NCBI GenBank assembly: GCA_030147925.1
Contig: JASBUK010000016.1
Coordinates: forward strand, 15,713-79,712
DNA from: Trueperaceae bacterium
Lineage (GTDB): Bacteria; Deinococcota; Deinococci; Deinococcales; Trueperaceae
Direction: 5' to 3'
Length of the DNA: 64,000 nt
Of the stretch, positions 9,471-59,706 are shown piece by piece. The translations under genes were made by a program, and so were the position numbers. Numbering within the stretch: the stretch's first letter is position 1; every line of letters begins with the position of its first letter. The notes under the pieces were generated by a model. That model saw nothing but the letters and a program-made list of their open reading frames with translations, was not told the origin of the DNA and did no database searches.

Positions 9471-11165
9471 TTAATCTGTCACCGCGCCCTTAGAAGCGCT
9501 TGAAACCAGCTTGGCGTACTTGGCCAGCACACCGCTCTGATACTTTATCGGCGGGGCTTGCCACTCAGATTGCCGCCGGGCTAAGTCCTCGTCGCTTATG
9601 TTGACTTGCAAGAGGCGCTGCTCGGCGTCCAAGGTGATGCTATCGCCTTCTTTAACGAGCGCAATGGGGCCGCCTACTTGTGCCTCGGGTGCCACATGAC
9701 CCACCACCAGACCGTAAGTGCCGCCGGAAAAACGCCCATCGGTAATCAGACCAACCGAGTCGCCTAAGCCCTTACCGATAATGGCGCTGGTGGGCGAGAG
9801 CATTTCGCGCATGCCGGGGCCACCCCGCGGGCCTTCGTAGCGGATGATGATGACGTCTCCCGCCCTGATTTTGTCGGCCATGATGGCGGTCATGGCTTCT
9901 TCTTCGGATTCAAACACCCGGGCCGGACCGGTCATCTTGATGGACTTAAGACCGCTGATTTTGGCCACGCTGCCTTCCGGTGCCAGATTGCCGCGCAAAA
10001 TTGCCAAGTGACCCTGCGGGTATTTGGGCTGCGTAAACGGCAAGACCACATCCTGGTCAAGTGGAGGAGCGCTTGCTACGCTGGCTAAGTTTTCCGCCAC
10101 AGTTTTGCCGGTGACGGTCAGGCAGTCGCCGTGCAGTAGCCCGGCGTTTAAGAGCATCTTCATGACCAGCGGAATGCCGCCGACGCGGTGCAAGTCAGTA
10201 GCAACGTATTTGCCGGAGGGTTTTAGATCGGCAAAGTGTGGCACCTTTTCGCGGATGCGCTCAAAGTCATCGAGGTTTAAGTCAACCCCAGCCGCATGAG
10301 CAATCGCCAGCAAATGCAAAACAGCGTTGGTGGAGCCGCCCACGGCCATGATCACGGCAATACCGTTCTCAAAGGCTTTTTTGCTCAAGATGTCGCGGGG
10401 TTTAAGGTCGTTTTCGATGAGGCTTAGCAGCGCACGACCACTTTCAGCAGCACTGTCGGCCTTTTCTTGATCTTCGGCGGCTATGGTCGAAGAATAGGGC
10501 AAGCTCATACCCATTGCTTCAAAAGCACTGGACATAGTGTTGGCGGTGTACATACCGCCACAGGAGCCTTTGCCGGGGCAGGCCCGCCGTTCAATCTCTT
10601 TGAAGGTCTCTAGGGCTATGCGTCCGGCATTATATTCGCCGACGGCTTCAAAGGCGCTGACTATGGTTAAGTCCTCACCCTGATAGTGGCCGGGTTTGAT
10701 GGTGCCACCATAGACAAAAATGCTGGGGATGTTTAAGCGGGCCATGGCAATCATGGCGCCGGGCATGTTTTTATCGCAACCACCTACGGCAATGAGTCCG
10801 TCCATGCTCTGACCGCGGCAGACGGTTTCGATTGAGTCGGCAATCACTTCGCGGCTTACCAAGCTGCACTTCATGCCTTCGGTGCCCATGGAGATGCCAT
10901 CGGAAATGGTGATGGTGCCAAATGTCTGCGGCATGCCACCGGCAACGCGCACGGCTTGTTCGGCGCTTGTCGCCATATCACCCAGACCAGCGTTGCAGGG
11001 TGTGATGGTGCTGTGGCCGTTGGCAACGGCGATGATCGGTTTGCCGAAATCCTCATCCTCAAAACCAACGGCCCGCATCATGGCGCGGTTGGGTGCGCGG
11101 CTATCGCCTTCGGTTACGACGCTGCTGCGCCGGTTGAGTTTGACTTTGCTAGCTGTGTCGCTCAT
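9471..11165 (-). CDS. ilvD: dihydroxy-acid dehydratase
   Basis: 564 aa with 'GGCDKNMPG', '[15 protein letters not shown]' and 'TDGRFSGGT'. Confidence 0.95.
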
Positions 11166-16967: not shown

Positions 16968-17705
16968 TTAGAGCCAGCGCTGGATGCGCTGCACGACATA
17001 CTCAAGACTGTGCAAACTGGTATCTAAGTAGAGCAATCTGGTCTCAGCTAGAACGCATTGTAGATAATCAAGTGCGGCGGTGGCGTCGTAATTTTGCCGC
17101 TCGGTGACAATGATACGTACCGCGTCAAGCAAATCGTCTTCGCTAACCCGTCGCTGCTTGACCAGGGCGGCAAGTTCGGGCAAATCAAAGACTTTGTCGC
17201 CACCCTCAATTTGCCTTAGCGCTGCTTCTAGAGCCTCGACATTTAGCTCCGACGCTTCCACAAAGTCAAAGCTGTCACGGCGGCTGAGCAGACGCTCCAA
17301 TCTAACGGTATCGGGCGCGTCAAAAAAGATAAAGCGCGAGTTTGACAGGGTTTCCACCGCGCTTTTAACTTCTTCTAAACCCCGCAGGTTATCGAGAAGC
17401 AAGGTCTGGCTGGGCTGTCCGTCCAGCGTCGCAAGATACTGATGCAGGGCATAGACCATGCCACCGGAATGTTTGCGCCGATAGCGCCGGGTCAGCTCAA
17501 AGCGTTGCAAACGATCCTTGACGGGTTTTTCGGGCAAACCGAGTTCGCGTTGAATTTCCGGGATGATGATTTGGTCGGTCAGCTCACGCCGGTTGGGCAG
17601 CAGCCGATACTGCTCATTATCTTTTTTAAGCGCCTCGAGAGTCGTGCTTTTGCCCACCCCGGTAAGCCCAACGATGATGATAATGGGTAGATCGGATTTG
17701 CTCAT
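16968..17705 (-). CDS. P-loop NTPase/kinase-like protein, function unknown
   Basis: Walker A 'GLTGVGKST'. I recognise no further family. ATGA overlap with the aminotransferase stop. Confidence 0.5.
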   Translation of the reverse strand: MSKSDLPIIIIVGLTGVGKSTTLEALKKDNEQYRLLPNRRELTDQIIIPEIQRELGLPEKPVKDRLQRFELTRRYRRKHSGGMVYALHQYLATLDGQPSQTLLLDNLRGLEEVKSAVETLSNSRFIFFDAPDTVRLERLLSRRDSFDFVEASELNVEALEAALRQIEGGDKVFDLPELAALVKQRRVSEDDLLDAVRIIVTERQNYDATAALDYLQCVLAETRLLYLDTSLHSLEYVVQRIQRWL

Positions 17706-18895
17706 GTCTTAAAACCCTCGCGCAAATTTTGCAAGCGCTGCCCAGCTTCTTGCAGTGCTTCATCGCTCTTGCAAAACGCCAGCCTGAGCAGGTGCTTAGC
17801 AAGATGTCGATGGTCTTTACTATAAAACGCGCTTGGCGGAATGGCTGTTACCCCGACTTGTACAGGAAGCGCCTCGCACAGCGCGACATCGCCCTTAAGG
17901 TCCAGGGCAGAACTGTCAGCTATCACGAAATAACCGCCCTGGGGCACAAGCGCTTTTAATGGTGTTTGCTTTAGCGCAGCAAGCAGCGTATCGCGTTTGC
18001 CCTGGTAGAGGCGGCGCAACTTAGCATAGTAATCGTTTTTGGCAGCCTGTGTCAGCACGCTGGCCGAGGCCTCTTGTAAGGGTGTGGCGACCACAAAAGG
18101 AATCCACTGATGCGCCAGCCGGACAGCCCGGATAAGCTCTTTTGGGCCCACCGCCCAGCCGACTTTCCAGCCTGTGACCGAAAAGGTCTTGCCAATACTG
18201 GAGATGGTGATGCTACGCTCCCAGCCACCGGGTCTTTGAGCAACGGAGAGATGCGGTACAAAACTGATGTGCTCGTAGACTTCATCACTGATGATGATGG
18301 CGTTATGCTTGTGAGCCAAGCGAATGATGGCGTCAAGCTCGTCGCTGGAGAAAACCTTGCCGCTCGGGTTGTGTGGTGTGTTGAGGATGATGGCCTTGGT
18401 TTTGGCATTAAAAGCGGCGGTCAGCTCTGCTAAGTCCAGTATCCAGCGGCCCGTGACATCAGGAAGCAAGGGGACATATTTGGGCACGCCTCCAGCCATA
18501 AGCACATCCGCTGGGTAGGCGTCATAAAAAGGCTCGAGCAAAATCACTTCGTCGCCTGGGTCAATTAGCGCCTGCATGGTGGCAAAGAGTGCTTCGGTAG
18601 CTCCAACAGTGATTTGAACGTTTTCCTCAGGCTTAAGCCCCAGGCCCAAACGCGCAGACATTGTTTTTGCCACTACTTCACTGAGTGCTGGTAGGCCTGG
18701 TAACGGTGCATACTGCTGAAAAGTTGTGCTGGCCGCGCGTAGTGCCTCGAGCACGAAAGCAGGCGGCTCAAAATCAGGAAAACCCTGACCTAAATTGATG
18801 GCCTTGTGCTCCTGGGCCAGCCGCGTGTATTTGGCAAAAACCGTTTCCCCGAAGCTGGCAATGCGTTTGCTATTAAACTGTCGATGCGTACTCAT
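17702..18895 (-). CDS. class I/II PLP aminotransferase (YbdL / KAT-like)
   Basis: 'INLGQGFPDF', 'NPHNPSGKVF', and the PLP-Lys motif 'SSIGKTFSVTGWKVGW'. Confidence 0.85.
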   Translation of the reverse strand: MSTHRQFNSKRIASFGETVFAKYTRLAQEHKAINLGQGFPDFEPPAFVLEALRAASTTFQQYAPLPGLPALSEVVAKTMSARLGLGLKPEENVQITVGATEALFATMQALIDPGDEVILLEPFYDAYPADVLMAGGVPKYVPLLPDVTGRWILDLAELTAAFNAKTKAIILNTPHNPSGKVFSSDELDAIIRLAHKHNAIIISDEVYEHISFVPHLSVAQRPGGWERSITISSIGKTFSVTGWKVGWAVGPKELIRAVRLAHQWIPFVVATPLQEASASVLTQAAKNDYYAKLRRLYQGKRDTLLAALKQTPLKALVPQGGYFVIADSSALDLKGDVALCEALPVQVGVTAIPPSAFYSKDHRHLAKHLLRLAFCKSDEALQEAGQRLQNLREGFKT

Positions 18896-18916
18896 TTTAC
18901 CCTATTGAAATGTGAG

Positions 18917-18941
18917 CTACTTTGGGTTTAGACCAAAGTAG
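18917..18941 (-). terminator. hairpin just downstream of the RT gene (no U-tract)
   Basis: 9-bp inverted repeat CTACTTTGG/CCAAAGTAG with a 7-nt loop, 11 nt after the RT stop and 22 nt before the aminotransferase start. Confidence 0.35.
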
Positions 18942-18951
18942 GCTAATTTCG

Positions 18952-20667
18952 TTAAACAGCATTTGTGCCAGATGCGCCCCCGGTTCCTGCCATTCCCCCT
19001 ACACCGAACTGACTTAGGCCGATATCTATCTCTTCGTCTGTCAATTCTCTGTCACGCCTGAAAAACCTTACCTCCTTGTCTTTCAAAATTTTGAAGTAAC
19101 TGTCATTATCAAGACAAGATTTATCTAAACCAAGCCATCCCTCTAAAGCACATTCATAAAATAGCAACCAATTGTCACTATAGAGTAACCTTGCAAGCCA
19201 AGCATCATTATTTTCTCCGCTTTGACTGGCTAAATCTTTTTTCCAATCTTCAGAAGCTAGTTCAGCAATAGAACCCGAGTCGTGAAGATTAAGCGCTAAT
19301 AGTCTGACGATAGGATTTGAACTTTTTTGGATATTGAGAACCGCTTGAGTGTCGATACGAACGTCTAATACTTGGGCGAGCCACAGACCCCATGCTAGCT
19401 CAAAATCACACTGAAATGGCGTTTGCGCTAAAAAGATATTTACGGCTTCTTTGAATGTTTTTAGAGGGAATCCTTTACGTTTGTACCACACTAAAATGTC
19501 GTGAATGAGGATAATGGTATCTGGGCGCTTTAACAGAGTTTGAGACAAAACTGCTTCTAAGAATTCCCACTCCCGTGAATTACCCTCTTTAATTTCTACA
19601 TACTTGAGATTCCTGCGATTAGCATAGGGCCGAATTATTTGCAGTGCATACTTGAGCACACTACTTGTTGGTGACGATTTCTGTATTTCAAATGCTTTAG
19701 TGAAAAAGTGTCTTAACTGGTCATAAATTCTGTTTTCGAAGTTGAAAGTGGCTAATTCAAAGGTCCACGGTGTTTTAAATGGTTCAGGAAGCTCGGCAAT
19801 ATGTGTTTTTATCTCGTTAATCTGAAGATGGTATTCATTTGCAATGACATGCAATGCTTCCAAAATATCTTGGGCATGTTTTTTCTCTGTCACGTAGAAT
19901 GCCATGTCGTCAACATGTCGATATGCTTTACAGGAAAAATTGAACCCCTTTAATTTCTGCTCTAGTAAACGGTCAATTTCTGCGCCAATTATTTCTGCAA
20001 TTACTAGAGAGGTGTCGGGGCCAACTGGTATTCCTTTTGTTTCTGCCTCTTTGGTATTTCGTAGTAGTTTGTCCAATTCTTTCCCTATTCCCTGTAAATG
20101 TGATGTGGTAGGGGAACTACTGGATTTTCGGTCGGCTTTAACTTTTTCCTTTCCAATGAAGGCCCACTCAATTGAATGAGTGTAGATAGAGTTGTAGAAG
20201 GATTGCAAATCAACATGCAATACATATTTTGCACAGGCAGTATAATGGATGCGGTAGTCATCCAGATTTTTGTGTTCCTTAACAGGACGAAGATAGCGCC
20301 TACACTTTTCATCAACGATTGGTGTACTGAGTGAAATTGGTGAAGTATTCAAATGATGAGTAATGTCAATCCATTTGTCGCAAACATATTGTGTTAAATA
20401 AGCTTGGTGTACAGGGTTAGTTAAGTGTGTAAGTCTGCGTGCGTGTACACCCTTAATAATACTGTACGTTACAGGTTTACTGGATTCTCTTGGACGTTTG
20501 GGTTTCTTACTATTTGGCCACTCACCCAGAATTTTGGTGATATTTATAGTGAAGGAATCGGTCGAAAAACATGGTGGAAGCCCATTGGGAAAGTAGCCGT
20601 ATTTTAACCAAAGCTCTAAGTTGACAGAATGTGAAGCTTTTAATGATTGAGGAGGATTAGGTGGCAA
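18952..20667 (-). CDS. Abi/UG-class (defence-associated) reverse transcriptase, stand-alone
   Basis: RT motifs in order: 'IIKGVHARRLTHLTNP', 'VLHVDLQSFYNSIYTHSIEW', 'GIPVGPDTSLVIAEI', 'YRHVDDMAFY' (Asp codons 19906-19911) and 'LQINEIKT'. The C-terminal ~280 aa look helical, and the tail 'GVGGMAGTGGASGTNAV' is Gly-rich. TTG start with AAGGA 9 nt upstream. About 35% GC against ~55% in the flanks. Confidence 0.85.
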   Translation of the reverse strand: MPPNPPQSLKASHSVNLELWLKYGYFPNGLPPCFSTDSFTINITKILGEWPNSKKPKRPRESSKPVTYSIIKGVHARRLTHLTNPVHQAYLTQYVCDKWIDITHHLNTSPISLSTPIVDEKCRRYLRPVKEHKNLDDYRIHYTACAKYVLHVDLQSFYNSIYTHSIEWAFIGKEKVKADRKSSSSPTTSHLQGIGKELDKLLRNTKEAETKGIPVGPDTSLVIAEIIGAEIDRLLEQKLKGFNFSCKAYRHVDDMAFYVTEKKHAQDILEALHVIANEYHLQINEIKTHIAELPEPFKTPWTFELATFNFENRIYDQLRHFFTKAFEIQKSSPTSSVLKYALQIIRPYANRRNLKYVEIKEGNSREWEFLEAVLSQTLLKRPDTIILIHDILVWYKRKGFPLKTFKEAVNIFLAQTPFQCDFELAWGLWLAQVLDVRIDTQAVLNIQKSSNPIVRLLALNLHDSGSIAELASEDWKKDLASQSGENNDAWLARLLYSDNWLLFYECALEGWLGLDKSCLDNDSYFKILKDKEVRFFRRDRELTDEEIDIGLSQFGVGGMAGTGGASGTNAV

Positions 20668-20726
20668 TATGAGATTCCTTTTGCAGGGTTATCAACTTAC
20701 TTTAGTGTAACCGGTGAGGTGACTTC

Positions 20727-21788
20727 CTAAGATATGACCAAAGCCTTCAACCCACTAATAACTGCTTTAGTAAAAGCTGCCGTGTTGCGGCTACCGCCCA
20801 AATCCTTGGTCGGGTCGTCGCTTAGGGCCTGCTGCACTGCTTTTTCCAGAGCGTCGGCTGCGCTGCTTTGCTTTAGCCCGTGACGCAACATTAAGGCTGC
20901 CGAGAGCATGGTGCCCACCGGATTGGCGATGCCCTTACCGGCAATATCCGGGGCGCTGCCGTGAACCGGTTCAAAGAGGCCGGTGCCTGCGCCCAAACTG
21001 GCCGAGGGTAGCAAGCCAAGCGAGCCGGGGATAACCGCGGCTAAGTCAGAGAGAATATCACCAAAGAGATTGCCGGTTACTACCACGTCAAACTGTTTGG
21101 GGTCACGAGCTACCTGCATAGCAGCATTGTCAATATACAGGTGGTCAAGCTCAATATGGGGATACTCGCTCTGCTGTACACCAATGACGACATCACGCCA
21201 GAACTGTGAGACATCCAAGACATTGGCCTTATCCACACTGGTGACTTTGCCGCCGCGCTCTTTAGCGGCCTCAAAAGCCACCCGGGCGATGCGCTCGACT
21301 TCCGGTTTTTGATAAACCATGGTCGAGAGACCTTCGGTACTTAAGTTGTGCGAGGGTTTGCCAAAGTAAATGCCGCCGGTGAGTTCGCGGACAATCAGCA
21401 TATCGGTGCCCTTAGCAACCTCGGATTTTAGCGGTGAGAGGTGCTCGAGCCCGGCAAAGACTTTAACAGGCCGCAAATTGCTGAATACGCCTAAGTGCTT
21501 GCGCAAGGCCAGTAAACCGGTTTCGCAACGCAGCTCGCGGGGTAGTTTGTCCCATTTAGGGCCACCGACTGCACCAAGAAAGACGGCATCGGCATCTTTA
21601 AGTGCCCCTTTTAGCTGCTCAGGGAAAGGGTGACCGTCACTGTCAATGGCTACGCCACCAAAGCGATGATGATGAACGCTAAGCCCAAAGCCGTACTGCT
21701 TAGCTAAATGGTCAAGCACGCTCAGCGAGGTATCAACCACTTCCGGACCGATACCGTCTCCGGCTAAAACTGCAATCTGGTAATTCAT
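20727..21788 (-). CDS. leuB: 3-isopropylmalate dehydrogenase
   Basis: 'IAVLAGDGIGPEV' and 'NLFGDILSD', 353 aa. Confidence 0.95.
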   Translation of the reverse strand: MNYQIAVLAGDGIGPEVVDTSLSVLDHLAKQYGFGLSVHHHRFGGVAIDSDGHPFPEQLKGALKDADAVFLGAVGGPKWDKLPRELRCETGLLALRKHLGVFSNLRPVKVFAGLEHLSPLKSEVAKGTDMLIVRELTGGIYFGKPSHNLSTEGLSTMVYQKPEVERIARVAFEAAKERGGKVTSVDKANVLDVSQFWRDVVIGVQQSEYPHIELDHLYIDNAAMQVARDPKQFDVVVTGNLFGDILSDLAAVIPGSLGLLPSASLGAGTGLFEPVHGSAPDIAGKGIANPVGTMLSAALMLRHGLKQSSAADALEKAVQQALSDDPTKDLGGSRNTAAFTKAVISGLKALVIS

Positions 21789-22567
21789 TTTTGTTCCTCC
21801 ATCACTTTAGGGCTGTTTTCTAAAGGTTTGGTCGCCAGCATAACGCCCAAAGGCAGGTCAAAGCTGACCGCGGTTTTGCCCTCAAATTTGAGATTCAGCG
21901 TGTTGCGTTCTGTAGGAGACGCGCTGAGAAAATGTTCGTATACGGTGCTGCGCTCCTCACTATCGAGATTGGCCCGGGCCAGCCAGGCGGCTACGTCGAT
22001 ATGGAGTCTGGTTCTGTCGTCACCGATAACCCAGTTTAGCTTAGCAGCACGTACAAAACCAAACCATTCCCGCAGCAGATAAGCCCGGTGGTGCTGGGCA
22101 TCACGCAGGTGCTCGAGCGCGTTAAACCAATCATCTATCTCGCTATTAGCGCTGACTTCATCGACAATGACCAAGCGTCCGCCTGGCTTGAGGATGCGCT
22201 TAACCTCGTCTAAAAAGCTTGGAATGCTGGCAAAATGATGGGCGGCATGCCTCACCGTTACAATGTCATAGGAGTTGGCCAGTAGGCCGGTGTCGTGCGC
22301 AAAGCCAAAGGCAAATTCCAGATTGTCAACCTGCTTAAAAGCGCCCATGGCTTGCCTTAGCATGCCCTCGGAGGAATCGATCCCCAAGACGTTGGCGGCA
22401 TATTTAGCCAGCGCCGCCGCCGTGTGTCCGGCGGCGGCGCCGATATCCACACAGCTGTCGCTCCAGGTTGGCCGGGCCAAGGCCAATAGTTTTTCCAGAC
22501 CTGGACCATACTTAAACATTTCGCTGTGGGCGTAGTGTTCGGCGCGTTCAGACCAGGTGGTGGGCAT
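21785..22567 (-). CDS. class I SAM-dependent methyltransferase (Methyltransf_11-like)
   Basis: 'CVDIGAAAGHTA' motif I and 'PGGRLVIVD'. Start moved to ATG 22567 (GAGG upstream). Its stop overlaps the leuB start (ATGA). Confidence 0.7.
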   Translation of the reverse strand: MPTTWSERAEHYAHSEMFKYGPGLEKLLALARPTWSDSCVDIGAAAGHTAAALAKYAANVLGIDSSEGMLRQAMGAFKQVDNLEFAFGFAHDTGLLANSYDIVTVRHAAHHFASIPSFLDEVKRILKPGGRLVIVDEVSANSEIDDWFNALEHLRDAQHHRAYLLREWFGFVRAAKLNWVIGDDRTRLHIDVAAWLARANLDSEERSTVYEHFLSASPTERNTLNLKFEGKTAVSFDLPLGVMLATKPLENSPKVMEEQK

Positions 22568-22583
22568 TATTAAACCTCTAACG

Positions 22584-23186
22584 TCAGTTTGCCAAATAAG
22601 GCAAGCCGGCGGCAGTTGCACTTATTTCTTTATCGGCATCTAAGAGTTCGACTATCGGGTCCCAGCGACCCTGGACAAGGGCGTCTTTGGCGGTGGGGCT
22701 GATGCTGATAGCAATGCTTTTATCGCCAAAGTTCAGGCGTTCATTTTCAAGATCAATAACTAGCTCAGTTTCGGGCTTTTCTTGTATCAGGGCCGCAATT
22801 TCCTGGATTTGTTCTTTTCCGGTGCTGATGCAGGGCATGCCCAGGGTGATGGAGTTGCCATAGAAGATTTCTGCAAAACTCTCGGCGATGACCGCCCGGA
22901 TGCCATAACGATACATAGCCTGTGGGGCGTGCTCACGGCTCGAGCCACAACCAAAATTGCTGTCAGCAATCAAGATACTGGCTTTAGCAAAGCGGGGGTC
23001 GTTTAGGGGATGTGCTTTTTCGCTGCCGTCTTCATTAAAACGCACGTCATAAAACATGTACTCGCCCAGGCCATCGAAGGTGACACATTTCATAAAGCGT
23101 GCCGGGATGATGCGGTCAGTGTCAATATCATCGCCAGGGATATAGACGGCCTTGCCGGAAATGCTGGTGATTTTAGCCAATGCCAT
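22584..23186 (-). CDS. leuD: 3-isopropylmalate dehydratase small subunit
   Basis: 'DDIDTDRIIPARF' and 'NFGCGSSREHAP'. Start moved to ATG 23186 (AGGAG upstream). Confidence 0.9.
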   Translation of the reverse strand: MALAKITSISGKAVYIPGDDIDTDRIIPARFMKCVTFDGLGEYMFYDVRFNEDGSEKAHPLNDPRFAKASILIADSNFGCGSSREHAPQAMYRYGIRAVIAESFAEIFYGNSITLGMPCISTGKEQIQEIAALIQEKPETELVIDLENERLNFGDKSIAISISPTAKDALVQGRWDPIVELLDADKEISATAAGLPYLAN

Positions 23187-23239: not shown

Positions 23240-23863
23240 TTAAGCTTCATTAGCGCCTACTTTGCTGCAGATCATGATGCCTGTGGACCAGTCTAAAAGG
23301 GTGGTATGAAAATCCGCTCGAGCTTCTAAAGCCGCTATTAGCTCTTTTAACTGCCCCGGCATTTGCCGCAGCACTTCAGCCGCTACACCTTTGATGTCGT
23401 TAAATTTTTCTTTATGCCGATTTTCCATGTCATCGACAATATAAATCCCGCCAGCGGCCAGCAGATTGAGCGCTAAGTCGCGGTGTTTTAGTTTGCCCGG
23501 CCAGGTATCGGCAAAGATGAGGTCAAACTTCTGCTCTTGCAGTGTTTGCAAAAGCTCATAGCCGTCTTGAGTATAGATGCTTAAACGCGGGTCGGCACCC
23601 AGGTATTTTGCGGCAACTGCCGTTAGCTCCGGGTTGTTGTCCACGGTTAAAAGGCTGGCCTGCTTATCCATGCCGTCAAGCAGCCAGGCGGTGGCTAAGC
23701 CCGTGCCGGTGCCGAGCTCGAGCAGCCTCCCCCCAAGCTTTGTTGCTGCCAGCGTTCGCAGCAGGCTGCCGGTCAGATAGTCCGAAGCCATGTCAAACCC
23801 AAGAGCCTTGGTTTCGGCTTCGATTGCTAAAACATTGGCGGGGACGGCGCTTGTATCTATCAT
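23240..23863 (-). CDS. class I SAM-dependent (O-)methyltransferase
   Basis: 'LLELGTGTGLAT' motif I and 'FDLIFADTWPGK'. It lies between leuC and leuD. Confidence 0.7.
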   Translation of the reverse strand: MIDTSAVPANVLAIEAETKALGFDMASDYLTGSLLRTLAATKLGGRLLELGTGTGLATAWLLDGMDKQASLLTVDNNPELTAVAAKYLGADPRLSIYTQDGYELLQTLQEQKFDLIFADTWPGKLKHRDLALNLLAAGGIYIVDDMENRHKEKFNDIKGVAAEVLRQMPGQLKELIAALEARADFHTTLLDWSTGIMICSKVGANEA

Positions 23864-54386: not shown

Positions 54387-55358
54387 ATGAGCACAAAATT
54401 TGCCGTCGTCATTTTGGCAGCAGGGCAGGGCACTCGCATGAAGTCAACCCTGCCCAAAGTCCTGCATGAAGTCGTCGGTCGCCCCTTGCTCGAGCACGTT
54501 CTTAAAGCAGTAGCACCTTTAAAACCCGAGCGAACGGTGGTGGTAGTTGGCTATGGCGCCGAGCAAGTTAAGCAGCGCTTAGCGCATTATCCAATCGAGT
54601 TTGTTTTGCAAGAAGAGCGCTTGGGCACGGGGCATGCGCTTAGGCAAAGCGAGCTTGTCTTAAGAGACTTTGACGGGCCGGTGCTGGTGCTTAACGGTGA
54701 TGGGCCGCTGCTTAAAACCGCTACTTTAGCGGCCTTTATAGCCAAACAGCAAAGCTCTGCTGCGGGCATGTCACTGCTTACTTGTGAGGTGGCCGACCCT
54801 AGCGGTTTGGGCCGTATTGTTCGCAAAGAAGACGGCAGCGTAGCGCAGATTGTCGAGGAAAAGGACGCCGACTCGACACAAAAAAGTATCCGTGAAGTCA
54901 ACCCCGGCATCTATATGTTTGACCAGCAGGTTTTTGAGCTGGCCGCGCAGCTTAGCAATGATAACGCTGCTAAAGAATATTACATTACTGATCTGCCCGG
55001 TATTTATCTAAGTCTTGACAAGAGCGTGCAGGCACTGCGCATAGCCGATGAAACCGAGGTGCTGGGGATAAATGATCGCAAGCAACTGGCCTATGCAGAT
55101 CGCATTTTGCGCGACCGCGTCCGCGAACAGTGGCTTTTGGTTGGCGTCACCATGACCTCTCCCGAGCAGACCTTTATCGACGATACGGTGCACTTAGGGC
55201 CGGATGTGGTGCTCGAGCAGGGTGTCACCTTGACAGGTCGGACGGTGGTGGAAGCGGGTGCGCGCGTCGGGGCTTACGCCCACCTGACGGACTGCACCGT
55301 GACTAAGGGCGCGTACGTAGCACCGCACACGGTCAAGCGCGGGGAAACGCTTGGCTGA
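54387..55358 (+). CDS. glmU: GlmU-like N-acetylglucosamine-1-phosphate uridyltransferase with a truncated acetyltransferase domain
   Basis: 'ILAAGQGTRMKSTLPKVLH' and 'LVLNGDGPL'. It is only 323 aa, and the left-handed beta-helix stops after about 4 coils. Confidence 0.7.
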   Translation: MSTKFAVVILAAGQGTRMKSTLPKVLHEVVGRPLLEHVLKAVAPLKPERTVVVVGYGAEQVKQRLAHYPIEFVLQEERLGTGHALRQSELVLRDFDGPVLVLNGDGPLLKTATLAAFIAKQQSSAAGMSLLTCEVADPSGLGRIVRKEDGSVAQIVEEKDADSTQKSIREVNPGIYMFDQQVFELAAQLSNDNAAKEYYITDLPGIYLSLDKSVQALRIADETEVLGINDRKQLAYADRILRDRVREQWLLVGVTMTSPEQTFIDDTVHLGPDVVLEQGVTLTGRTVVEAGARVGAYAHLTDCTVTKGAYVAPHTVKRGETLG

Positions 55359-55387
55359 ATGACCTTCGGAGTGACGCGGGATACGGC

Positions 55388-57592
55388 TCAAAGAAACTTG
55401 TAGTGCTTAAGTCCCTCCAAGACTCCCGCTGCGTAGTGACCGTCGGCGAAGTAGACGTGTTTCGCGCCCTTGAGTCTCGTCAACTCCTCGGCGTGATTGC
55501 CGACGACGATGCCCCGGAAATTTCCGCGCAGCATCTCCTCGTCGTTACCCGAATCCCCGGCGACGGCGATATTTTGGGCAGGAATACCCCACTTGTGACT
55601 TAAGTAGCGAATCGCTTTGCCCTTTGAGGCGCGGTGCGGCAAAACGTCCAAAAACTGTCCGTGCGAGTAGATCAGGTTGTAGCGCAGCTTGGCCTCGTTT
55701 AAAACCCGGTGGACGGTCTCGAGGTTACCATTTTCATTCCTCATATAGTAGCTGATCTTAAAGCGGCGCTGGTTGGCCTCTTCTTGTAGTTCCAGAAAAT
55801 CTAACTCAGCCAAAACTTCGCGGATCTTTTCCGGCTTCCACCGATAAGAGATGTGCTGGGCGTAGCCCTGGTCGGGCGTGAACTCGGGTCCATAATAGAT
55901 TTCGCTGCCGACCGATGAGACGATGATATCCGGCTGGGGGAGGTCATAAGAATCCAGAACTTCCTTGACGAGTTTTAGGGAACGTCCCGACGCCACCCCG
56001 AAACCGAGGGTCGGGTGTTTGTCCTTAAGGATCTTGTTCAGCTGAACAAGCGTGTTCTGAACGCCTGTGTCCTCTTTGTTGATCAGGGTGTAATCGATGT
56101 CGCTCATGAAGAGCTTGTCAATCGTCGTCAAGTAGCGCCCGACCCTGCCTCTAGGTTTGACGGCGGGCTGCGGGGCGTCCTCGCGCATAAGGTCGGAGAT
56201 GACGTCTAAGTAGGTGTCGCAGTGCGCCCGCCAAGAATAGTGCTCGCGCACGCCCTTAATACCGTTCTCCGAATAGCAGTTCCACAGTTCCCCATCTACT
56301 AAAATTTTCTTTAGCGCACCACTGATTTCTTTGTAATTTTGAACGTCGACTAAGATGCCGCTGTTACAGTTCTTAAGGATGTCTTGCGGCCCGCCGTGGT
56401 TGGTCGAAACGACTGGCAGCCCACTTGAACTCGCCTCGATGACGGTGATGCCGAAGTTCTCGACCAGGGCAGGGTTGACGAAAACGCCTTTGGTCGCCGC
56501 GGCAAGACGGTAAAGCGCGGGAATTTCCGTGTCGGGCTTGTGCTTTTTGGGCAGTGCCATCTTCCCATAAAGGTCGTACTTGTCCATCAGCAAAAGCATC
56601 TCGGTCAGGACTTTACGCTCGTTGTCGTCCATCTCCTGAATGTCTTTACGTACACCTGCAAAGATGGCTAGATTAGCGATTGATTGGAGCTCTTTGTCCT
56701 CACCGTAGGCGGTGACCAGGCCGTCGATGTTTTTGCGCTTGTCGGGTCGGCTGATCGCCAAAATGAGCGGCTTCTCGGGACGGTTTAAGAAGCGGTTGAT
56801 CTCTCTGCGCATGTTGACGCGCGCCCAGACCTGCTCCTCGCTGGGGGTTTGTGCCTCGTCCAAGTCATGGTAGTAAGGGTAGAACTTATCCACTTCGATA
56901 CCTGGCGGAACCACCTTGAAGGTCGTGCTTTTGTGCGCGTCGTAAAGTTCGTAGCCCCGCTCGACCTCGTGATGGGTACTGGCGATGACGATGTCTGACT
57001 TGCGCATCACCTCTTCCTCTACGCTGATGCGGTGATCGATATGGTACTGCTTGTCAATCTCTTTTTTGCTGAGCCCCGCTCTGGTTAGCACTTGCAGTTT
57101 ATTGCGACCCAGAGAGTGTCCTGTGAAGATGAGAGGCACACCCAGGTAGCCAGCGAGCTCCATCGCCACGTAGCCCGCGTCCGCGTAGTGGCCGTGGACG
57201 AGGTCCGGGGTGATGCCCTCCTTGCGGTTGAAGCGCAGCACACCGTCGACGAACTCGTCTAGGTGTGGCCAGAGCAGCTCTTTGCGTATGTACTTCTTGC
57301 CGCCTGCGCGGATGCGGACGATGCGGGCGTTGTCACTTAGGGGCTCGAGCCCCTGCGCGTAGTCTTCAGCCACCTTCGGATCCTCGATGCAGCGCGTGAA
57401 AAGGTCGACCTGGGCCACCTTCGGGTGCTTACCGAGCGCCCGCGCGAACTCGACCATATATTTGGTCTGCCCACCCGTGTCCGCGTCGCGCCCCAGCTCG
57501 AGGTCGTGCGAGCGAATCAGGCCGTGGAGGCTGAAAAGCTGAATACACAATCCGTCGTCGCTACTCTCTATCTTGCCGTCTGTTTTCGTCAT
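55388..57592 (-). CDS. sps: sucrose-phosphate synthase with a C-terminal SPP-like HAD domain
   Basis: GT4 N-terminus 'GGQTKYMVEFARALG'. C-terminal HAD motifs 'SDIDYTLI' and 'AGDSGNDEEM'. Confidence 0.85.
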   Translation of the reverse strand: MTKTDGKIESSDDGLCIQLFSLHGLIRSHDLELGRDADTGGQTKYMVEFARALGKHPKVAQVDLFTRCIEDPKVAEDYAQGLEPLSDNARIVRIRAGGKKYIRKELLWPHLDEFVDGVLRFNRKEGITPDLVHGHYADAGYVAMELAGYLGVPLIFTGHSLGRNKLQVLTRAGLSKKEIDKQYHIDHRISVEEEVMRKSDIVIASTHHEVERGYELYDAHKSTTFKVVPPGIEVDKFYPYYHDLDEAQTPSEEQVWARVNMRREINRFLNRPEKPLILAISRPDKRKNIDGLVTAYGEDKELQSIANLAIFAGVRKDIQEMDDNERKVLTEMLLLMDKYDLYGKMALPKKHKPDTEIPALYRLAAATKGVFVNPALVENFGITVIEASSSGLPVVSTNHGGPQDILKNCNSGILVDVQNYKEISGALKKILVDGELWNCYSENGIKGVREHYSWRAHCDTYLDVISDLMREDAPQPAVKPRGRVGRYLTTIDKLFMSDIDYTLINKEDTGVQNTLVQLNKILKDKHPTLGFGVASGRSLKLVKEVLDSYDLPQPDIIVSSVGSEIYYGPEFTPDQGYAQHISYRWKPEKIREVLAELDFLELQEEANQRRFKISYYMRNENGNLETVHRVLNEAKLRYNLIYSHGQFLDVLPHRASKGKAIRYLSHKWGIPAQNIAVAGDSGNDEEMLRGNFRGIVVGNHAEELTRLKGAKHVYFADGHYAAGVLEGLKHYKFL

Positions 57593-57699
57593 AGCTAGAT
57601 CCTCCGCTTTATCGTTCGTTGGCTATTTTAAAAACGCTTCCCCGACCCAAGTATAGGCGAGATGATGTGAATCCTCTGAAAGCTGCTTTGCAGAAAAGG

Positions 57700-57871: not shown

Positions 57872-59014
57872 ATGTCACTACTGAACAAACCCCCTGCGGT
57901 ACTCGCACTCGAAGACGGCACCATTTACTACGGTTACGCCTTTGGCTATCACGGTCAGACCGTCGGTGAGGTGGTTTTTAACACCTCCATGACCGGCTAT
58001 CAGGAGATTCTCACCGACCCCAGCTACAACGGCCAAATTGTCACCATGACTTACCCGCATATCGGCAACTATGGCGTGAGCGTTTATGATATGGAGTCCA
58101 ATAAACCGTTTGCCCGGGGCTTTATCGTGCGGGAGTTTTCCCGCGTGGCCAGCAATTATCGCTCCAATCAGGATTTGCAGAGCTTTATGGAACAGCACAA
58201 CATCGTGGGCATCGAGGGCATTGACACACGTGCTCTGACCCGCCGTTTGCGCGAAGGTGGCGTGGTTAAAGGCGTGATTTATCACGGTAAAACCGATGAG
58301 GCTAAAGAGTCTGAACTGGTGCGCCAGGCTTTAGAACACGAGGATATAGACGGGCGCGATATGACTCCGGAAGTGACCACGCCGCTGCCTTACGCTCGGC
58401 CTACCTTTCAGGAAAACCCCCGTGTGGTGGTCATTGATTTTGGCATCAAGCACTCGATTGTTTATAAGCTCGAGCAATCCGGCGCCGAAGTCATTGTGGT
58501 ACCGGCGCAAACCACTCCAGCGCAAATCATGGCCCTAAATCCCTATGGTTTGGTACTGTCTAACGGCCCAGGTGATCCTGGCGGCCCGCGTTACGCCCAT
58601 GACACCGTCTGGCAACTATTGGGTCTGCTGCCAACCTATGGCATTTGCATGGGACATCAGCTTTTAGGCTTGGCGGTTGGCGGCAAGACTTACAAACTCA
58701 AGCACGGTCATCACGGGGCCAATACCCCGGTTAAAAACCTGATCACCGGCGAAGTGGAAATCACCAGTCAGAACCACAACTACGTGGTGGATATTGACAG
58801 CATCCCCGGCCAGCAGTTTAGGGCGACGCATATCAACTTAAACGACGGCACCCTAGAGGGCATGGCGCATGTGCGCTATCCGGTCTTTAGCGTGCAATAC
58901 CATCCGGAGGCCAGCCCGGGGCCGCATGACGCCAATTATCTGTTCAACCGCTTTATCGAAGAGGTCAACGCCTTTGAAGGGGCTAGTGCTCTGCCCGCTA
59001 TGCGCGGTTTTTAA
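57872..59014 (+). CDS. carA: carbamoyl-phosphate synthase small (glutaminase) subunit
   Basis: 'GICMGHQLL' catalytic Cys and '[13 protein letters not shown]'. Confidence 0.95.
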
Positions 59015-59442
59015 TTTAATACCCTAACCGGGTCGTTTTTGGCCTTGCGTTCTCTGAGCAGCAGATAAGCGCCTAAACCCAGGGGTCCGGCAAAGAGCGT
59101 TAACAGCAAAAAGATACCCGGATTGATGCCCCAGTATTTGGCGTCGCGAAAGAGCCAGACACCAACAAAAAGGTCAAGGGTGATAAAGTGCGCCCAGGCG
59201 ACCACAAAACCCCAACTGTTGCTGAGGCTTAAACGCAGCGCCTCAAAAGACAGGTCAAGGCCGCCTGCCGAACCAGTAAACAATACCGTCAGCAAAAGCA
59301 GGGTATAGATGCCGCCCAAAACGATATAAGGCCAGTAGGAGAGAACCAGGCGCTGGGTAAACCGCGCTCGGGGAAAGAGCAACATGCTGAGCCAGATAGG
59401 TAAGGGCAGTACGTTTAACAGGGTGAATAATACTTCGGCCAT
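59011..59442 (-). CDS. DUF4281 (ABA4-like) membrane protein
   Basis: 143-aa four-helix protein with N-terminus '[20 protein letters not shown]'. Confidence 0.55.
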
Positions 59443-59706
59443 GGCCTTAGTTTACAGGGGTTTTTTGGTCTAGTAAAAAAGCTTTGGGGATTTTTCTAAA
59501 GAAAATTTTGTGAAAATACTATTCGCGGCAATTTGAAATGGTCTTTGTAAAGGCGATTCTTGATTCAAAAATCAGTCGACCATTCGAACGAATATCCGCT
59601 AAATTCTTTGCTTGTACTGAATCCGATTAGTTCCTTAAGCGTTATGAAACTCGGTTCAATTCTCTTAAGCCTATCGTTCTTGCTACGCTCGGATCCACTC
59701 ACATTA

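Follow-up and report, generated by a model that had tools for sequence, protein, structure and literature searches.

Does a lone, low-GC reverse transcriptase (RT) gene set among biosynthetic genes encode a phage defense enzyme and, if so, of what kind? The question is raised by a 64-kb stretch of DNA (64,000 nucleotides of contig JASBUK010000016.1, hereafter the window) whose host, judging from its protein similarities, is an uncultured Trueperaceae-related lineage of Deinococcota. An RT gene on the minus strand of this window separates leuB from an aminotransferase gene, and an original prediction, made from the nucleotide sequence, took it for a recently acquired, stand-alone defense gene. 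Our analysis shows that the low-GC island consists of a single gene, acquired horizontally and placed where two conserved housekeeping blocks meet. The gene encodes a class 1 UG/Abi RT that is intact and, among characterized enzymes, closest to DRT6 (UG12); we assign it, as a divergent member, to the named, experimentally characterized UG12/DRT6-like family. The joint reading, an acquired gene for a UG12/DRT6-like class 1 RT that acts, by homology, through a DRT4/DRT6-type mechanism, is in our judgment probably correct.

Profile, PDB sequence, and fold searches agree with the original prediction that the protein is a defense-type RT of the Abi/UG class. The PADLOC Drt6 model is the top match to the RT protein (441 bits over residues 17 to 543). 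Two PADLOC models named Drt4 (PDLC02177 and PDLC02179) give 419 and 386 bits, and further scores are 258 bits for UG30, 164 for UG14, 139 for Drt3b (in the palm region), 130 for AbiK, and 113 for Abi-P2. The NCBIfam Drt4 equivalog NF041749 scores 236 bits and misses its cut-off of 450. Pfam recognizes the generic RVT_1 domain only (47.5 bits with a cut-off of 29.6; 2.3e-12). Among PDB sequences, the best match is 9wy8, an MBP-DRT6 fusion (175 bits, residues 18 to 538); the others are Escherichia coli UG15/DRT4 (83 bits, residues 18 to 362 only), AbiK (63 bits), and Abi-P2 (50 bits). The YVDD numbering of 9wy8 agrees with the D223/D224 mutant that PMC12783706 reports for Sphingopyxis DRT6, and alignment with 9wy8 makes the YRHVDD motif of the RT protein the counterpart of those mutated residues. 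Of the comparisons with group II, retron, and diversity-generating retroelement (DGR) sets proposed along with the original prediction, the first two leave the protein far below threshold, with 39 bits for the group II model TIGR04416 (cut-off 300) and 35 bits for the retron St85 model (cut-off 235).

The predicted structure leads to the same relative. An AlphaFold2 monomer model built from a 60-sequence alignment (predicted local distance difference test score (pLDDT) 91.5, predicted template modeling score 0.91) has a fingers-palm region without a thumb and an all-helical C-terminal half, which spans residues 300 to 555 approximately at a pLDDT above 90 and is followed by a tail (residues 557–571) with a pLDDT below 50. 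In a Foldseek search of the PDB, the top match is again 9wy8, described there as 'the hexameric DRT6' (E 2.3e-29, template modeling score (TM) 0.79/0.91, root-mean-square deviation 2.9 Å). UG15/DRT4 is next (TM 0.72–0.82), then AbiK and Abi-P2 (0.50–0.65), AbiA (about 0.35), and DRT9 (0.34); the query-normalized TM of group II, retron, and DGR RTs is 0.34 or lower. Superposition of the model on DRT6, DRT4, and AbiK extends from end to end. A C-terminal HEAT-like alpha-Rep domain fused to the RT is the hallmark of class 1 UG/Abi enzymes (PMC12783706, PMC9226505), and the all-helical C-terminal repeat domain foreseen in the original prediction is borne out by helices that begin near residue 300 and superpose on this domain. 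The same prediction had read the motifs as a signature of AbiA, AbiK, Abi-P2, and the UG RTs. The motif pattern is indeed shared with these proteins, but the assignment was too broad, since DRT6 and DRT4 are clearly closer.

The gene itself is an uninterrupted open reading frame (ORF) of 571 codons in the ORF listing, and both the frame and all five RT motifs quoted in the original prediction are present in its translation. It begins with TTG, which is the earliest possible start after an in-frame TAA (20689–20691), and ends with a TAA at 18952–18954. This start is supported by a Shine-Dalgarno-like AAGGAA motif at 20675–20680, with the TTG 8 nt downstream, and by the N-termini of the nearest RT homologues, which are colinear with the RT protein and begin at the equivalent residue. 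All 24 of 24 family-invariant columns are retained, including D153, Y162-T163-H164, G212/P214/G216, and R250/D253/D254. The gene, its parts, and its immediate surroundings are as follows.

18952..20667, minus strand: RT gene (ORF call, RVT_1, PADLOC Drt6, and the 9wy8 sequence and Foldseek matches).
19768..20619, minus strand: fingers-palm RT domain without a thumb, approximately residues 17–300 (invariant columns, AlphaFold2, Pfam).
20209–20211, minus strand: first catalytic aspartate, D153 (motif A), followed by the invariant Y162-T163-H164.
19906..19923, minus strand: catalytic YRHVDD, residues 249–254, of which R250, D253, and D254 are family-invariant (invariant columns).
19000..19767, minus strand: all-helical alpha-Rep (HEAT-like) domain, approximately residues 301–556 (AlphaFold2 helices H300–H554; full-length superposition on DRT6/DRT4).
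18955..18999, minus strand: disordered Gly/Ser/Thr-rich C-terminal tail, residues 557–571, ending ...GVGGMAGTGGASGTNAV (pLDDT below 50; tail comparison).
20668..20726, minus strand: 59-bp spacer from the leuB stop (20727–20729) to the RT start, GC 0.41, containing the AAGGAA motif.
18896..18951, minus strand: 56-bp spacer from the RT stop to the aminotransferase ATG (18895), GC 0.38, containing a 9-bp hairpin.
20727..21788, minus strand: leuB, which flanks the RT gene upstream and closes a (pilT)-leuC-leuD-MT1-leuB block; composition host-like.
17702..18895, minus strand: class I/II aminotransferase gene, the downstream flank and first gene of an aminotransferase-kinase-MR_MLE block, of host-like composition.

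The protein has few close relatives. An identical sequence occurs in one NCBI contig and one assembly derived from the SRA. Our first search returned three clusters (P0002–P0004) that are 48 to 49% identical to the RT protein, all of them metagenomic and on contigs of about 2 kb; the remaining matches are at most 33% identical. A HMMER pass over 1.84 billion cluster representatives recovered 669 relatives at E ≤ 1e-30, and two short fragments found in this pass (P0131 and P0203) belong to the same subclade. In a bootstrapped neighbor-joining tree of 46 taxa and 312 columns, the RT protein and P0002–P0004 form a clade in 100/100 replicates, with P0125 and P0165 as sisters in 66/100. This subclade nests in a star-like radiation that holds the validated DRT6, and E. 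coli DRT4 is a long outgroup branch. Pairwise identities within the radiation are generally about 30%: DRT6 is 31% identical to P0033, 33% to P0053, and 28% to the RT protein. The original prediction could not place the protein in a named group and allowed for an undescribed variant. Profiles, sequence, and fold instead put it in the UG12/DRT6-like radiation, in which this 46-taxon tree, star-like at its deep nodes, also nests it, and we read it as a divergent member of that group rather than as an undescribed type.

The names of the PADLOC models cannot be used to separate DRT4 from DRT6, and we rejected them for this purpose. The family match closest to validated DRT6 (P0084, 471 bits to 9wy8) receives its top score from a model named Drt4. 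The two models so named (PDLC02177 and PDLC02179) outscore the Drt6 model on the very proteins nearest the validated enzyme, all of which lie far from true E. coli DRT4/UG15. Calls of DRT4 or DRT6 that come from PDLC02177, PDLC02179, and PDLC03748 demand caution.

How, then, did such a gene come to lie in this operon? Its composition is that of an outsider. The GC content of 0.399 is the lowest of any gene-sized stretch in the window, where same-length windows across the 64 kb average 0.523 ± 0.025 (z = −4.9), and the GC content at third codon positions is 0.35 as opposed to 0.53–0.60 in 11 neighboring genes. The strand-symmetrized tetranucleotide distance (0.038) is likewise the window maximum (0.018 ± 0.003 elsewhere). 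A two-boundary maximum-likelihood segmentation delimits a low-GC block at 18867–20774 (log-likelihood ratio about 50), with 2-lnL boundary intervals of 18819–19086 and 20708–20792 that bracket both borders of the island originally drawn at 18896–20726. The GC and tetranucleotide comparison that had been recommended therefore bears out the island: the gene is the extreme of the window in both measures, and its flanks are host-like.

One further sign that had been taken to suggest foreignness is weak by itself. A palindromic octamer, GCTCGAGC, occurs 61 times in the 64 kb, approximately 44-fold above the 1.4 copies expected (for example at 576, 18532, and 21443), and 61 of the 70 CTCGAG sites of the window lie in this context. 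As originally observed, the RT ORF contains no copy. However, this absence is not significant alone, since a stretch of 1.7 kb would lack the octamer with a Poisson P of about 0.19 and the window has longer stretches without it (5.7, 4.1, and 3.3 kb), so we rejected it as evidence of foreign origin. The octamer is also enriched, at 0.2 to 1.1 per kb, in related Trueperaceae/Deinococcales loci (L002–L005, L082–L095) and is absent from unrelated loci and from the contigs of RT homologues; it appears to be a 'highly iterated palindrome' signature shared across the lineage. Two secondary outliers of composition lie farther along the window: the next-highest tetranucleotide distances, at about 55.2–56.0 kb (region approximately 55200–57600), and a mild GC dip to 0.466–0.47 around 59.0–59.1 kb (region approximately 59000–59450).

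Gene order in relatives points to the same history. The host leuB product is 68% identical to those of Trueperaceae and Deinococcales metagenome-assembled genomes (MAGs), and those of pilT and leuC are 76 to 80% identical to an uncultured Trueperaceae MAG. In one Deinococcales MAG (L002), the order is leuC-leuD-MT1-leuB-aminotransferase-kinase-MR_MLE, with about 25 bp between leuB and the aminotransferase gene and no RT, and the same RT-less adjacency is found in nine metagenome contigs (L087–L092, L094, L097, L101). The search for an empty site suggested by the original prediction was therefore productive, and with about 10 such relatives and the extremes of composition, the claim of a recently acquired, stand-alone gene has held up. 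The genomes of these RT-less relatives have 70 to 75% GC, which prevents an alignment of their junction DNA with that of the window. The closest empty-site relatives reach only 68 to 69% protein identity in the genome and metagenome scans, and we found no closer empty site beyond that level.

The two blocks that meet at the RT gene are not joined everywhere. In Truepera (L003 and L004), the gene after leuB is a homologue of the window gene at 9471–11165, and the closest relatives of the aminotransferase gene (L082, L084–L086) have other genes upstream of it. Since the blocks are adjacent in some relatives and apart in others, the RT gene sits at a synteny-block boundary, which suggests that the leuB/aminotransferase junction (18895/20727) is prone to rearrangement and can accept insertions.

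The three nearest RT homologues share the GC content of the window copy (0.40–0.41) and lie in flanks of 42 to 49% GC among unrelated neighbors; one (L162) adjoins an aldehyde-dehydrogenase-like C-terminus and a terminator, and another (L163) adjoins a PD-(D/E)XK-like gene. Of the more distant family members, one adjoins an rve transposase (L165), one lies amid toxin-antitoxin modules (L166), and one shares an island bounded by an integrase with HEPN and HTH genes (L167); no partner gene is conserved across these three. Taken together, the composition, the RT-less synteny, and the unrelated contexts of the homologues indicate a recent acquisition of a single gene by horizontal transfer.

The vehicle of this transfer left no scar among those that we looked for. 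The RT gene neighbors in the window are housekeeping genes and, as the original prediction held, include no integrase or transposase; no tRNA was found in the scan, and no direct or inverted repeats flank the gene. No close relative was found on a sequenced phage or plasmid, the best plasmid matches being 28% identical and the phage matches partial, and a BFVD fold search with the RT model returned no close fold. A phage or plasmid vehicle is thus unsupported. PADLOC recognized no other defense system in the 64 kb.

Expression probably relies on read-through from leuB together with the gene's own ribosome-binding site, as judged from the sequence of the 59-bp spacer. Between leuB and the RT gene, the minus strand has no terminator-like site, in agreement with the original prediction, and we found no usable promoter in the spacer. 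The sole sigma-70-like match overlaps the RT start codon, for which reason we rejected it as a promoter of the gene's own. Read-through fits the sequence because both a terminator and a convincing promoter are lacking there. Beyond the gene, a perfect 9-bp hairpin with a 7-nt loop (18917–18941, CTACTTTGG-TCTAAAC-CCAAAGTAG) begins 11 nt past the RT stop codon and is not followed by a T-run. It could be a weak terminator, an RNA-stabilizing element, or a leftover of the inserted DNA; the fold energy of its spacer (18896..18951) is not significantly better than that of shuffled sequences (z = −1.6). Neither the 59-bp nor the 56-bp spacer has significant RNA structure relative to shuffles, and no Rfam family matches the window, so a noncoding RNA (ncRNA) in the spacers or elsewhere in the window was rejected.

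What the enzyme would do is best read from its relatives. UG12, which is DRT6, provides RT-dependent defense of E. coli against T5 and ZL-19 (PMC9226505; Mestre et al. 2022). DRT4 is a hexamer (a dimer of trimers) that primes from its own Tyr125 and makes random, untemplated single-stranded DNA (ssDNA) (PMC12783706). In the model of that study, ExoI/SbcB degrades the ssDNA in uninfected cells, and T5 ORF55 protects the 3′ end, which leads to a build-up of toxic ssDNA and an aborted infection. DRT6 performs the same untemplated, protein-linked synthesis, is toxic in an ORF55-dependent manner and in ΔsbcB cells, and is oligomeric by size-exclusion chromatography (PMC12783706). Because the catalytic core and the alpha-Rep domain of the RT protein are intact and no partner or RNA accompanies it, the DRT4/DRT6 mechanism is the best supported for this enzyme, and defense by protein-primed, untemplated ssDNA synthesis and abortive infection is most likely its role. 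By homology with DRT6 and DRT4, the protein would assemble as a hexamer (a dimer of trimers), use a hydroxyl among its own side chains to start DNA synthesis, and make untemplated ssDNA that stays covalently attached to the enzyme, without need of an ncRNA or a partner protein. A host 3′-5′ exonuclease would keep this ssDNA low in an uninfected cell. Upon infection, a phage ssDNA-binding protein would shield the 3′ ends, the ssDNA would build up, and the cell would die before phage release.

The residue that would carry the first nucleotide may not be the one usual in the family. Priming sites vary among class 1 RTs (AbiK Y44, Abi-P2 Y61, AbiA Y298/Y303, DRT4 Y125; PMC12783706), and the papers that we consulted do not name the one used by DRT6. 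In other relatives, the proven primers are tyrosines of the C-terminal tail, namely Y666 of 667 in DRT3b and Y496/Y498 in DRT9. The tails of the UG12/DRT6-like family are variable and disordered and often consist of a Gly-rich stretch followed by Tyr. Among 120 matches from the first search, 78 place a Tyr within their final six residues, and in 56 it is the very last residue; among independent cluster representatives, the count is 77/128, where chance would give about 21% (P about 8e-22). Within the subclade of the RT protein, P0002, P0003, P0131, P0203, and P0165 have a conserved tail, ...ID-G-x-S-x-x-G-x-GG-(M/F)-AG..., with a Tyr near its end. The RT protein (...GGMAGTGGASGTNAV) and P0004 (...GGMMGGGATSGT) lack this Tyr. 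In an AlphaFold2 model of P0002, the Tyr-ended tail also has a pLDDT below 50, so neither model points to a priming residue.

If the tail Tyr is the normal primer, then the RT protein must prime from a different hydroxyl, and its sequence offers Y125 of the palm or a Ser/Thr of the tail as candidates. Tyr125 occurs in the RT protein, P0002, and P0003 (three of the four full-length subclade members), where the wider family has Ala or Ser. HMMER aligns Y125 of DRT4 with V129 of the RT protein, four residues past this tyrosine. Priming from a Ser or Thr of a Gly-rich tail would be unusual for an RT, if true, and the priming question is the only feature that could lift this protein above a routine family member.

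Set beside its best-known relatives, the protein most resembles DRT6 (Sphingopyxis sp. PHR10625.1, 9wy8). Both are encoded by a single gene and have the order fingers-palm without a thumb, alpha-Rep, and tail; their catalytic residues are identical, they share a radiation in the tree, and DRT6 is the best full-length match by profile, sequence, and fold. The window protein differs in belonging to a tiny, separate subclade with 27 to 28% identity, in having a short Gly/Ser/Thr-rich tail where that of DRT6 is long and acidic, in its host, which belongs to Deinococcota and not to Proteobacteria, and in its setting, which is a leu operon rather than a mobile or defense island. DRT4 (UG15, E. coli WP_031606642.1; 9vdo, 9vdv, 9l9s, 21ou) has the same architecture, a similar fold, and likewise a single gene, but its sequence similarity (83 bits) is limited to the N-terminal half, and its Y125 column is not conserved in the family of the RT protein. 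AbiK, Abi-P2, and AbiA also belong to the class 1 UG/Abi RTs, possess an alpha-Rep domain, and synthesize DNA in a protein-primed, untemplated manner; they are clearly more distant, their priming tyrosines lie at other positions, and the oligomeric states of Abi-P2 and AbiA differ. The tail-Tyr priming of DRT3b (UG8) and DRT9 (UG28) parallels the enrichment of tail tyrosines in the family. However, these two systems produce defined polymers and depend on partner RTs, ncRNAs, or both, whereas the window RT has no partner, ncRNA, or tail Tyr, and their similarity to it is weak (Drt3b 139 bits; DRT9 TM 0.34).

Several observations weigh against the assignment of a DRT6-like defense RT and temper our confidence in it. 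The identity to validated DRT6 is 27 to 28%, and the protein scores 100 to 300 bits below typical members on family profile hidden Markov models; with the best PADLOC model, typical family members reach 550–750 bits and the window subclade 407–453. The protein is also isolated, as the next representative after the query in the 1.84-billion pass is 36% identical (270 bits), and the neighbor-joining tree is a crude one that holds no UG14, UG30, or UG31 references. The tail (...GGASGTNAV) lacks the Tyr that approximately 60 to 65% of the family has, which counts against the assignment because that position primes synthesis in DRT3b and DRT9. The gene has no evident promoter of its own and lies outside any defense island. 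Deinococcus is not known to have SbcB/ExoI; if the host lacks it as well, then the host-side regulator would be a different exonuclease. Finally, the protein and its subclade are known here from sequence and a structural model.

These observations lend themselves to other explanations. Rather improbable, although it deserves notice, is the view that the window RT and its few relatives form an undescribed deep class 1 lineage, in which the RT protein and P0004 have lost the tail Tyr. In that case, priming would occur from another hydroxyl if this Tyr is the normal primer, and a non-SbcB exonuclease would take the regulatory part if the host lacks SbcB. We think it unlikely that the gene, although intact, is a passenger without activity or in decay, or that it has been domesticated for a role other than defense, its priming lost with the tail Tyr. 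Such a fate would account for the absence of a residue that is found in 60 to 65% of the family and in five of seven subclade tails, and for a gene without its own promoter in a housekeeping operon rather than a defense island. Yet the 571 codons are uninterrupted, every family-invariant residue is kept, and the predicted fold is of high confidence. The terminal Tyr is also missing from about 35 to 40% of the family, including members that end in SGPSG (P0053, P0076, P0102), and class 1 RTs differ widely in where they prime. Moreover, the unameliorated composition implies a recent arrival, with little time for decay.

Other kinds of RT fit less well. It is decidedly doubtful that this class 1 defense RT makes a sequence-specified, protein-templated polymer, as DRT3b or DRT7 does: a 2026 commentary calls the product chemistry of DRT6 less resolved than that of DRT4, a preprint on DRT3 makes the case that many class 1 enzymes may synthesize DNA in unconventional ways, and the subclade is very divergent, but DRT6 behaved as DRT4 did in the same untemplated assay, and no sequence feature points specifically to templating residues. 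A DRT4 (UG15) orthologue that is not DRT6-like, with the same general chemistry and priming from a palm Tyr, is very unlikely. The scores of PDLC02177 and PDLC02179 (419 and 386 bits) are close to the 441 bits of Drt6, the fold is DRT4-like (TM 0.72–0.82), and Y125 in the RT protein, P0002, and P0003 lies within four residues of the DRT4 Y125 column. Against this stand the missed NF041749 cut-off (236 of 450 bits), the match to E. coli UG15 structures over residues 18–362 only as opposed to the full-length match to DRT6 (175 bits), and the long outgroup branch of DRT4 in the tree. In addition, Y125 of DRT4 itself aligns with V129, the family consensus at Y125 is Ala/Ser, and model names that are also best on the DRT6-near P0084 do not separate the two groups. 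The generic RVT_1 domain and the 139 bits of Drt3b on the palm might be taken to indicate the RT of a mobile or templated retroelement (group II intron, retron, or DGR), or half of a DRT with several components, like DRT3b, with its partner and ncRNA overlooked, which we consider extremely unlikely. The group II and retron scores (39 and 35 bits, with cut-offs of 300 and 235) and Foldseek TM values of at most 0.34 speak against it, as do the lack of an Rfam intron or retron RNA, spacers of 59 and 56 bp without significant structure, the lack of a second RT or of repeats in the window, and an alpha-Rep domain in place of a maturase or thumb domain.

Two methyltransferase genes of the leu block and some isolated matches elsewhere in the window complete the picture of the neighborhood. 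MT2, a gene for a 207-residue S-adenosylmethionine-dependent methyltransferase (23240–23863, minus strand), lies between leuD and leuC and is missing from that position in all syntenic relatives, whose leuC and leuD adjoin. A homologue with 45% identity lies directly upstream of the aminotransferase gene in L083. The host-like composition of MT2 (GC 0.53) marks this as a rearrangement rather than a recent import. MT1, a Methyltransf_11-type methyltransferase gene (21785–22621, minus strand), lies between leuD and leuB in at least 10 related contigs and so is a stable resident of the leu operon in this lineage. Among the other 46 ORFs, outside 13.8–26.7 kb, isolated PADLOC matches are QatD (7.9e-24), which is probably a TatD-family DNase, and mad2 (4.5e-10), and two phospholipase 'Effector' models also match among these ORFs, at about 1e-9.

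The finding reveals no new kind of system, as the family structure and the mechanism were published between 2022 and 2026. It extends the UG12/DRT6-like family into Deinococcota and into a very sparsely sampled branch, and it presents a minimal, single-gene, putatively antiviral RT in a core biosynthetic operon, without mobility genes and with the empty site kept in related genomes. A C-terminal Tyr that is common in the family would be dispensable or replaced in some of its members, and the RT protein is thus a useful comparison point for finding the priming residue of DRT6-type enzymes.

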